From the IMG/VR virus record IMGVR_UViG_3300012910_000001, positions 1 to 39,650 of that record: a stretch of 39,650 nucleotides of DNA, one strand, 5' to 3'. The stretch is from a virus (Duplodnaviria > Caudoviricetes). Made by a program: the position numbers and the translations under genes. Positions 15,850 to 18,131 of the stretch are shown piece by piece. Under the pieces are notes generated by a model that saw nothing but the letters and a program-made list of their open reading frames with translations, did no database searches and was not told where the DNA came from. Within the stretch, counting starts at the first letter, position 1. The number at the start of each line of letters is the position of its first letter.

Positions 15850-18131
15850 ATGAGTATAACTACTACGTCTAACCTCGGTCCTATGATTTTGCAATCACTA
15901 GCTCCGGCGATGTTATACGTTCCTACGCCCACAATGAATTATATTACTATCTGCGACAAAGTTTCTATGCCAGCAAATGGCGGAACTACTTGCAGATTTA
16001 TGCGCCCACGTGCGTTAACACCACCTACTGTCCAATTGGGCAATTCCGGAATTGATCCTCCGGCCCAAGTGCCTCAGAGGGATATTATAGACGCGCAAAT
16101 GGCGTTTTTCGGTGAATTGGCTCTTGCAGCCTAACCAGTGCCGAAACTATTGATGATCCTGGGTTACCTGTTCATAAGGGATTACCCAGTAGACTGGATG
16201 TATCATCAATGAGCAGGTTTTTGAAGAATGGCCTGCTATAAATCTGCTCTAATTGACTTGGAACCCCTCATTACCTGAGGGCAACAAGGGGCAAGTGTTT
16301 AATTGTTATTAAAAGTATGGTTTCTACAGTGAAGTTTTTTAAGTTGATCCATCAAACTCAATCGTTGATCAATAATTTCTTGCGATATGCGTTGTACACC
16401 TTGTTTTCCTGGCTGATACTCGGAACAAAAATATGTACTTCTCATTTTCAAAAGAATCATTGCTTGTTCCTTCTTGATAACAAGATAAGGAATCATGAGT
16501 TCACAAAGATGGGTCAAGCAATCACCTGTGCATTTCCAACTATAGACTGGACCTTTACAATTTATAGCGCGTTGTTTAGGCGTATATTCGCTTTTCCAAC
16601 CGCCAAAATTAGTATAAAGCCAATCTGTGAGGCATTTATCAGTTGTAGTAATACCTATAATGGTTTGAAAAAAACCTGTTCCTCGGATTTTATCTTTATT
16701 ACCATAATTTCCGATAAACAGAGTTCCTTCGCCATCAATAATGCCAGCAAGATATGCAATTTGGCCCACTGTGTAATCAACTCGTGTATATTTACTTTTC
16801 GACATAAAAACTCCTATGTTTAATGTCAGTGTAATTCTACATGATTAACAATTAAATGTACAGCCTGAACGACTAAGGCGAGTGGACACAGTAATGTGAA
16901 GCGATAGTCTGATCTGCAACTATATACGAAATTGCAGAGACATACAGAAATGATATGTCCTCACAATAACATGTGGAGTAACAAAAGTGTATACTTCAGG
17001 ATCAAGAAGGTGTTTTAGCTTGGGTATCTGAACGCTTGGCTGCTTAAGCTACGGCCAAGAGTCTTGACGATGAAATGGTAGCAATGCGTCAAGCCGAGGA
17101 TTGAGATTAAGTCCTCGATAAACTGAACCTGATTGACTTGGAAGGCTAAGGTTTATATAAACTATGCCGACAAGGGGCAAGATGATGAAAATAGAGTTTA
17201 CTAATTTTAACTGTGTAGAATGTGGTGAAGAAAGCCCGTTCGCAGTTATGAAAGTTCCATTTAAATGCAAATGCAAATGCGGATTTGCAACATTGGATAA
17301 AAAACTGTTTAAGGGAAGTGAATACCCCGATAGTTTGAAGAAATTCTATGATAAGTTTAATCAGCCTGAGAGACTGAGTGGTTTAGAGTCAGAAATGACT
17401 ATGCGACAGTCCGAACCAGACAACGAAAGGTCTGGAGTTTAGTAGAAATGCTAAACCGCCAATAATTGACCGAAAAATAGACCGCGGTCATTTAATGGTC
17501 ATAAAGTAACAGAGTGTTAATTCTCAGAGACTACATTGTATCTGCTGCTTCGCAAATTAATGCTGGTGGTGGGTCAAATGGCTTTAATCCAACAAACTTA
17601 GGTTTGACGGACTTTAGCCTTGTAGCAACGACTCTTGATACTAACAATGCCTATAAGTTCATGTCAGGTATTGAAGGTATGGATCGTTTTGGTACAGGCC
17701 CTATAAGAAGCGCATATTTCATGCTAAGCTCAACAGAGCTTCAGTCTGATTTTGATGCTTTAGTTGGTCAAGGTGTATTAAACAACTGGAACTATCCGTC
17801 CAATGCGTCAGCATTGCCATCGGAATGGGGCTCAGTTTATAATTTACGTATTTTAACAAGCTCTGAGGCTCCAGTAGCACGTAATGCTGCTATTAATAAC
17901 CTTGGTCAGTTGAATGACGTTTATTACAACACCGTTTTAGGAAAGCAAGCGATTACGCATATCAAGCAAGATGGTTATTCCATGAACTTGATTTATCGTG
18001 ATCCTTACTATTCAGGCATGTTAGCTCAAAATGCGACTTTAGCGGTTAAATTCGCTCAAGCACAAGCGCTGACACAAGATACGGCTATCCGTAATCTTTT
18101 ATCAACACGCTTAAGCAACTTGGGGGTATAA
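15850..18131 (+). CDS. Major capsid protein (N4-gp56-like), 5 exons: 15850-16113, 16193-16218, 16990-17041, 17078-17101, 17517-18131; 326 aa after splicing
   Basis: Joined exons total 981 nt and give one frame: ...AQMAFFG|TGCIINEQV|ILQDQEGVLAWVSERLA|VAMRQAED|LILRDYIV...EWGSVYNLRIL...DPY...ATLAVK. Every junction has exon-U/intron-G ends and an internal guide sequence. Confidence 0.88.
16114..16192 (+). other. Core-less mini-intron 1 (79 nt)
   Basis: IGS CCAGT-G-CCGAAA (16135-16146) is complementary to the ligated junction TTTCGGT|ACTGG. Ends in G; contains an in-frame TAA and breaks the frame. Confidence 0.8.
16219..16989 (+). mobile_element. Group I intron A (771 nt) carrying an antisense LAGLIDADG gene
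   Basis: P1 AGCAGGT/GCCTGCT with U.G; P3 TCTGCTC(16243)/GAGTGGA(16880); P7 GACTA(16871)/TAGTC(16905); terminal G16989; P10 TGAAG/CTTCA. Confidence 0.9.
16299..16805 (-). CDS. Single-motif LAGLIDADG homing endonuclease
   Basis: IAYLAGIIDGEG motif and the typical PYLVIKKEQA C-terminal motif; own AGGAG RBS. Confidence 0.9.
   Translation of the reverse strand: MSKSKYTRVDYTVGQIAYLAGIIDGEGTLFIGNYGNKDKIRGTGFFQTIIGITTTDKCLTDWLYTNFGGWKSEYTPKQRAINCKGPVYSWKCTGDCLTHLCELMIPYLVIKKEQAMILLKMRSTYFCSEYQPGKQGVQRISQEIIDQRLSLMDQLKKLHCRNHTFNNN
17042..17077 (+). other. Core-less mini-intron 2 (36 nt)
   Basis: IGS GCTAC-G-GCCAAG (17048-17059) is complementary to the ligated junction CTTGGCT|GTAGC. Ends in G; in-frame TAA at 17045. 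Confidence 0.8.
17102..17516 (+). mobile_element. Group I intron B (415 nt)
   Basis: P1 CGAGGAT/GTCCTCG; P3 CTGAACC(17123)/GGTTTAG(17380); P7 GACTG(17372)/CAGTC(17407). Shares ATTGACTTGGAA, ACAAGGGGCAAG, CAGCCTGA and GTAACA..AGTG with intron A; terminal G17516. Confidence 0.9.
17182..17442 (+). CDS. Small intron-encoded Cys-rich ORF (zinc-ribbon-like)
   Basis: CVECG...CKCKCG; AAGGGG lies just upstream; the frame runs on into the intron core. Confidence 0.4.
   Translation: MMKIEFTNFNCVECGEESPFAVMKVPFKCKCKCGFATLDKKLFKGSEYPDSLKKFYDKFNQPERLSGLESEMTMRQSEPDNERSGV

Follow-up and report, generated by a model that had tools for sequence, protein, structure and literature searches.

The major capsid protein (MCP) gene of this phage raises the question of how four inserts crowded within 102 nt of coding sequence, two of them only 79 and 36 nt long, can be removed from its transcript. 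Group I introns are by definition self-sufficient ribozymes. The main point of our analysis, which was absent from the initial annotation of the locus, is that two of the four inserts are mini-introns without a recognizable catalytic core. We refer to these as satellites and to the core-bearing introns that follow them as hosts.

The capsid gene consists of five exons and four inserts

The window, by which we mean the whole 39,650-nt stretch of DNA analysed, is a complete phage genome with terminal repeats. The capsid locus is flanked by terminase, portal, and tail genes, and its coding sequence is divided as follows:

15850-16113, + strand: MCP exon 1, 264 nt, codons 1-88, final base T
16193-16218, + strand: micro-exon 2, 26 nt
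16990-17041, + strand: micro-exon 3, 52 nt, final base T
17078-17101, + strand: micro-exon 4, 24 nt, encoding part of a predicted spine helix
17517-18131, + strand: MCP exon 5, 615 nt, 204 codons plus stop

The inserts of 79, 771, 36, and 415 nt (I1 to I4) lie at coding positions 264, 290, 342, and 366. T is the last base of every 5' exon and G the last base of every insert. The joined frame encodes 326 amino acids with no internal stop; it aligns with all 33 full-length relatives among the 120 listed at 86.5-96.5% identity and with its best match, P0002, without a gap (304 of 315 residues, 96.5%). The same four insert boundaries were obtained with a profile-to-DNA spliced aligner, the penalty of which favours a T before and a G at the end of each insert. 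The ORF list for the locus holds only pieces of 94 and 205 aa. These results bear out the initial annotation in its description of five exons with 26-, 52-, and 24-nt micro-exons, of four insertions between coding positions 264 and 366, of group I-type splice sites, and of a gene that gene callers see as two fragments.

The initial annotation had also named the product as the major capsid protein and asked for a check of the HK97 fold by structure prediction, and here too the results agree. A model of the relative P0031, which is 89.9% identical to the MCP without gaps (84 diverse rows), gave a pLDDT of 90.5 and matched the N4 capsid (TM 0.78, E 1e-19) and HK97 (1ohg, E 7e-10). A profile search matched four PDB capsid proteins, and the MCP also matched the major head family phrog_1357. 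The MCP is thus predicted to be an HK97-fold, N4-gp56-like major capsid protein, the fold being taken from P0031. Two relatives have gaps in the part of the protein where the introns cluster, of 9 residues in P0016 and of 13 in P0051; the gap in P0051 covers coding positions 243-282, which are the two sites of a G anomaly described below.

Two of the inserts contain a predicted group I-type core

The larger inserts, I2 and I4, were resolved into the following features:

16219-16989, + strand: host intron I2, 771 nt, compact group I-type core (profile E 5e-11 and 8e-17)
16231-16237, + strand: I2 guide for P1
16240-16298 and 16859-16984, + strand: I2 core halves, with an ORF in the P6 loop
16299-16805, - strand: I2 endonuclease ORF, 168 aa, single-motif LAGLIDADG-like, antisense inside I2
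17102-17516, + strand: host intron I4, 415 nt, compact group I-type core (profile E 2e-7 and 1e-12)
17111-17117, + strand: I4 guide for P1
17120-17183 and 17354-17515, + strand: I4 core halves, from the core profile
17164-17442, + strand: I4 short ORF, 92 aa, Cys-rich, overlapping the P6 loop and running into the core

In both introns the U of the 5' exon is paired to a G in P1, and the terminal G is present. A core profile trained on 62 short introns matched 159 of 159 inserts at ordinary sites (the 62 training introns included), I2 and I4 among them, and found no further cores in the complete genome. Helices P3, P4, P6, and P7 covary in 34 related ORF-less introns, on a core structure drawn up manually from a single row: of 782 cells, 97.3% pair, two-sided changes occur in 17 of the 23 pairs, and the first P7 pair is G-C in all 34. 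Because these helices covary in relatives and the profile matches, we class I2 and I4 as compact group I-type introns and predict that they self-splice. The Rfam group I model found nothing in either at its gathering score or at E<=5, for which the ORF insertions and the compact core may be responsible; Rfam scans otherwise returned three chance matches (E 0.08-4.8).

The motif of the I2 ORF aligns with that of I-MsoI (E 3.9e-5), and the ORF matches phrog_5046, a family labelled HNH (E 2.9e-21). No Pfam family was found for it at E<=0.1, a nearly identical ORF at locus L081 scored below the cut-off, and the 92-aa ORF of I4 matched no Pfam or PHROG family. Opposite the antisense endonuclease gene, a sense-strand frame of 168 codons (16317-16823, +) is open; it has no family match, and several relatives have similar long sense frames. 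A promoter-like site (16862-16834, -; 9 of 12 consensus matches) lies just upstream of the endonuclease start at 16805, a weak signal, as the region has 14 sites of this kind where 7.7 are expected. By eye, G/A positions on both strands beside P3 (alignment A2, columns 47-49 and 143-145) appear to change in parallel, which suggests a non-canonical pair.

Two mini-introns have guides but no core

The smaller inserts and the exon segments that face them are laid out as follows:

16114-16192, + strand: satellite I1, 79 nt, no core, terminal G, small extra hairpin
16132-16134, + strand: I1 in-frame stop, after ELALAA
16135-16139, + strand: I1 strand of P10, partner 16193-16197 in exon 2
16140-16146, + strand: I1 guide, P1 of 7 bp with G.U at the splice site
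16148-16157, + strand: I1 tether strand, 10 bp with exon 2, partner 16202-16211
16212-16218, + strand: exon 2 segment, 5' strand of host I2 P1
17042-17077, + strand: satellite I3, 36 nt, no core, terminal G
17045-17047, + strand: I3 in-frame stop, product end Leu-Ala-Ala
17048-17052, + strand: I3 strand of P10, partner 17078-17082 in exon 4
17053-17059, + strand: I3 guide, P1 of 7 bp
17063-17069, + strand: I3 tether strand, 7 bp with exon 4, partner 17087-17093
17095-17101, + strand: exon 4 segment, 5' strand of host I4 P1

I1 and I3 each have a P1 of 7 bp, a P10 of 5 bp, and a terminal G, and each is devoid of a P3-P7 core; no P7-like helix was seen in either. The tail of each is complementary to an exon stretch that ends 8-9 nt before the 5' splice site of the host, such that satellite P1, tether helix, and host P1 follow one another immediately ahead of the host core. 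These same three helices were present in the thermodynamic centroid fold of each window cassette (z -2.5 and -3.1).

We collected loci from relatives by protein similarity (80 viral, 14 from genome bins) and by DNA patterns for small and large inserts. The 148 close-family loci were reduced to 126 distinct ones before counting. Further pattern searches gave at least 203 loci, 75 of 203 without a capsid match, and loci with low scores were searched again using a diverse profile (67 loci, of which 57 were distinct and 51 were scored). Two of the 19 pattern matches for site 264 (L095 and L096) were fortuitous, falling outside capsid genes, and were excluded.

None of the 70 inserts at sites 264, 275, 312, and 342 matched the core profile, I1 and I3 included, even though 14 of them exceed 150 nt. 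A P1 of 6-10 bp with G.U at the splice site was found in all 69 satellites for which the following intron is known, and a P10 of at least 4 bp lies directly beside P1 in 67 of the 69, with two-sided changes. The shortest satellites, at 29 nt, consist of almost nothing besides P1, P10, and tether, and no sequence is common to satellites at different sites. Judged from sequence, I1 and I3 are group I-like substrates and not group I ribozymes, because they gave no match to the core profile and lengths of 29-79 nt are too short, and they are best called non-autonomous.

The nearest precedents for such small inserts are fungal rDNA introns of 56-81 nt (Phialophora PaSSU), which according to the available text of that report are likewise very short, retain P1 and P10, and are missing most of the core; they also pair the middle of the intron with the 3' exon, as the satellites pair with an exon (PMC3160393). 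A 67-nt Phialophora intron with these pairings is reported there to splice in vitro, raising the prospect that the mini-introns, too, splice themselves or are excised by protein (PMC3160393). The same text differs on several counts, in that P7 is said to be retained and the introns are described as self-splicing with no neighbouring core (PMC3160393). The satellites are found in a protein gene, have no P7, and have a nearly obligatory downstream core, and their tether tracks the position of the host. Self-splicing inserts would need no core downstream, yet 69 of 70 satellites have one. Together with the lengths down to 29 nt and the lack of a P7-like helix or of any sequence shared between sites, this makes autonomous or protein-mediated excision very unlikely.

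The tail of each satellite follows the site of its host

The tether was evaluated in 55 satellites. The tether score, with the register taken as the best of 7 offsets, averaged 17.8 compared to 8.6+-0.3 for shuffled tails. Within a search window of -20 to -6 the tether ended at -8 to -10 from the host splice site in 48 of the 55. Exceptions are the three 264-296 loci and L168, in which it ends at -15. The tails follow the partner site, whether this is at 290, 303, 350, 360, 366, or 432, and satellites at the one site 264 differ in their tails according to whether the host is at 290, 303, 360, 366, or 432. In L165 the tether bypasses an intervening intron and reaches the host at 309. For 7 of the 55 satellites the satellite's own window failed to beat all distant-site windows.

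Individual loci were also compared within classes. In the 264-290 class 124 of 126 tether cells pair, and synonymous changes in the exon are matched in the tail; 18 of 160 tether cells are unpaired in the 312-366 class. Own-locus duplexes exceeded all 2000 within-class permutations for both of these classes, the same analysis being weak for 312-350 (0.05) and 275-366 (0.02). The layout recurs at sites 243, 259, and 264 in capsid clades that are 30-46% identical (7 loci measured). There, none of 34 small inserts had a core, and the tether score was 19.1 compared to 8.7+-0.4 (n=32).

Satellites apparently depend on a downstream core

The next insert after a satellite is a core intron for 69 of the 70, and the 70th is on a cut contig. 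Among 72 distinct loci selected by protein alone, a core beyond position 285 was present in all 19 satellite loci compared to 5 of the 53 others (table 19/0/5/48; Fisher 3.6e-13, uncorrected for relatedness). An upstream core without any satellite was seen in nine distinct loci of the protein-selected set; a satellite accompanied by an upstream core alone was not found. We also considered whether the hosts in turn need their own satellites, and rejected this, since lone cores were found at 290 (17), 309 (2), 360 (3), and 366 (2). A satellite was present in 29 of 31 host-selected close-family loci at 366. Because lone cores exist at host sites, the dependence of satellite upon core is one-way.

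An alternative to removal by the adjacent core is that satellites are removed in trans by an excised host intron or a free core, with adjacency reflecting co-inheritance during homing. Homing can co-convert nearby inserts, which would count in favour of this possibility. Engineered group I ribozymes that remove segments in trans have also been described, as far as the accessible text of the reports goes (PMC4094466, PMC2532722). For a trans-acting enzyme, however, there would be no need for the tail to match the exon stretch just before host P1, and it does so even across distances of 96-168 nt to the host. Nor would such an enzyme account for the nine loci with an upstream core that have no satellite, or for the lack of any satellite with an upstream core alone. 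We therefore regard removal in trans as unlikely.

A model for removal of the satellite by the neighbouring core

We propose that the MCP gene contains two cassettes, each consisting of a satellite, a micro-exon, and a host, and that the host ribozyme likely removes the satellite in cis before it removes itself; we assign this reading a probability of roughly 0.78. The tether and host P1 would take the place of P2/P2.1 of other group I introns, allowing the satellite P1 to dock in the host core, which would then cleave the satellite 5' splice site with guanosine. The satellite 3' splice site would lie in the loop closed by the tether, its terminal G being bound by the host core. P10 would guide ligation and in this manner pick the satellite 3' site over that of the host. 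Once the satellite is removed and the exons are ligated, the host would splice itself normally. Removal of the satellite probably comes first, given that ribosomes would stop within it and that the hosts are mostly without the tail that characterizes stand-alone introns (see below). A point against the scheme is that the terminal G belonging to the core should compete with the satellite G for the G site.

The initial annotation had pointed out that joining a mini-intron 5' site to the 3' site of the following intron would skip exon 2 or exon 4. The arithmetic is correct: without exon 2 the frame shifts and meets a stop at codon 102, and without exon 4 the frame is kept and the product has 318 aa. 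The annotation went on to suggest that splicing order could gate capsid output or give a variant subunit; taken as a selected switch, this would include a subunit shorter by eight residues. A satellite P1 docked in the host core, used with the terminal G of the host, would indeed yield exactly the skip product, and skipping has been reported for Twort orf142 and for more than 47% of SIOphi polymerase transcripts in the text available to us (PMC11878797). This part of the annotation is not supported, in that P10 fits only the adjacent exon. In both window cases P10 of the mini-intron forms 5 bp with the exon that directly follows it, compared to 0 bp with the skip exon, and the means over 69 relatives are 5.6 and 0.36 bp, respectively. 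Exon 4 encodes residues 115-122, which lie inside a predicted spine helix (105-132) that skipping would cut; its residues are mostly invariant in 31 relatives, and the segment is present in all 33 full-length relatives, even in two that are without other segments. The exon 2 skip product lacks the Ala-Ala tail discussed below, and cassette exons range from 24 to 168 nt in varied frame, so that no common skipped product would result. A selected switch is accordingly improbable. Under the cis-removal model skip products are an expected error of the cassette scheme and not its purpose, and exon skipping may occur as a by-product.

Read-through into satellites ends at Ala-Ala

Translation of unspliced RNA into I1 would end in ELALAA-stop and into I3 in Leu-Ala-Ala-stop. 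A C-terminal Ala-Ala, as in the ssrA tag, is a signal for degradation by ClpXP, and both window satellites have such an ssrA-like end. By analogy, this end would send truncated capsid protein made from unspliced RNA to ClpXP. Ala-Ala-stop was found in 62 of the 70 satellites, compared to a mean of 4.65 after shuffling. Where a site-264 satellite has its stop in the next exon, its length is 2 mod 3 (14 of 14), the frame that gives xAA or xVA.

We compared the tails of hosts and of stand-alone cores. At positions 182 and beyond, an Ala-Ala tail was found in 6 of 69 hosts compared to 62 of 71 stand-alone cores; I2 and I4 are both without it. At shared sites the values are 6 of 45 hosts and 9 of 13 stand-alone cores, and in a distant clade the values for site 309 are 0 of 18 and 2 of 2, respectively. 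The contrast is weak at site 290 in distant clades (stand-alone 4 of 17, hosts 1 of 13). As further exceptions, the tail is missing from 4 of 6 stand-alone cores at 296, 360, and 366, from 5 of 32 distant satellites, and from all 19 introns located before position 182. The most straightforward interpretation is that host introns are seldom reached by ribosomes, which fits a satellite removal closely coupled to splicing of the host.

An in-frame stop and a hairpin after a potential take-off point are also features of translational bypassing, for which T4 gene 60 is the type case, and one may ask whether the small inserts are spliced at all or instead reflect an assembly artefact, a dead gene, or such bypassing. 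Since T closes the codon ahead of each insert and G closes the insert itself, however, take-off and landing codons cannot match, and the covariation of P10 would have no use in bypassing. The satellites span 59 clusters of exon DNA at less than 85% identity, with reading frames intact. We consider it extremely improbable that the inserts remain unspliced.

Endonuclease-bearing satellites and one- to four-nucleotide inserts in relatives

Thirteen coreless satellites of about 950-990 nt at site 312 hold an ORF of 288-296 aa in the P1 loop (L027:3841-4716, L040:3841-4704, and 11 more), with LAGLIDADG above the cut-off in both of the two scanned. Twelve have a visible host, and these hosts are short (196-338 nt). 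Because the ORF-bearing satellites adjoin short hosts, the pairs suggest a division of labour, with mobility provided by one partner and catalysis by the other.

A second arrangement was found in nine loci with a core intron at 207 (L027, L060, L063, L074, L106, L115, L123, L125, and L126). The spliced aligner was run here with a minimum insert of 1 nt. A frameshifting insert of 1-4 nt that ends in G is present at 243 in all nine loci, compared to 0 of 115 others covering the region. The 5' exons at 207 and 243 end in the same hexamer, which is also found in 17 of 113 loci without the intron. The guide of the 207 intron would form a P1 of 6-7 bp and an adjacent P10 of 4 bp at site 243 in 9 of 9 loci. 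The 1-4-nt insert is likely excised naturally by the upstream intron using its own guide. In L027, L063, and L074 the extra G at 243 coincides with the absence of a G at about 283; translation in the shifted frame from 243 to 283 runs into a stop, and synonymous conservation is seen for the original frame. From the sequence it looks as if the RNA would have to lose a G at one site and gain one at the other.

Relation to known systems and significance

The capsid gene of crAss-like Zeta phage, in five fragments, is a precedent for a multi-intron capsid gene (PMC7886860), and LittleE has an intron in its capsid gene (PMC3706429), as described in the accessible portions of these reports. Twort orf142, the Zeta MCP, and LittleE resemble the present locus in having a U before and a G at the end of the insert, micro-exons, virion genes as targets, and an intron-encoded endonuclease; that of LittleE is antisense, like the I2 ORF (PMC3706429). 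The available descriptions of these three contain no coreless insert or tether, whereas half of the inserts here are without a ribozyme. For the Zeta MCP, intron-type domains are encoded in three of the four spacers, the fourth being uncharacterised in that account (PMC7886860). Spliceozymes and trans-excision-splicing ribozymes are alike in that a core excises a foreign segment, down to a single nucleotide (PMC4094466, PMC2532722). As described in the same sources, these engineered ribozymes act in trans and bear the guide themselves; the cassettes here are natural, are proposed to act in cis, and have the guide on the substrate. An in-frame stop just inside the intron is described for bacterial and phage group I introns, for which translation of unspliced RNA likewise ends early in the intron (PMC3984707). 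The MCP inserts differ from the introns in the accessible text of that paper in that the end is held at Ala-Ala, sometimes by way of the frame-shifted next exon, and in that the tail is mostly absent from hosts shielded by a satellite. In searches of open-access papers we found no coreless phage introns spliced by a neighbour, no natural tethered satellites, and no Ala-Ala tails in natural introns.

Capsid genes of this kind are annotated as fragments because gene callers and Rfam miss all four inserts. Both cassettes are short, at about 250-300 nt without their ORFs. For the broader view of non-autonomous introns we see the balance as even: one ribozyme may serve tethered satellites that bring their own guides, in the manner of a small natural spliceosome, endonuclease-bearing satellites and catalytic hosts may form a partnership in which mobility is exchanged for splicing, and cores in relatives may also remove 1-4-nt inserts with their own guide and move a single G between two sites, a natural RNA editing by ribozyme. 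If the model is true, a 29-79-nt element consisting of guide and tether and processed by its neighbour would be the splicing counterpart of a non-autonomous transposon. It would also provide a natural model for the separation of catalyst and substrate, which is often assumed in accounts of how spliceosome-like splicing arose.
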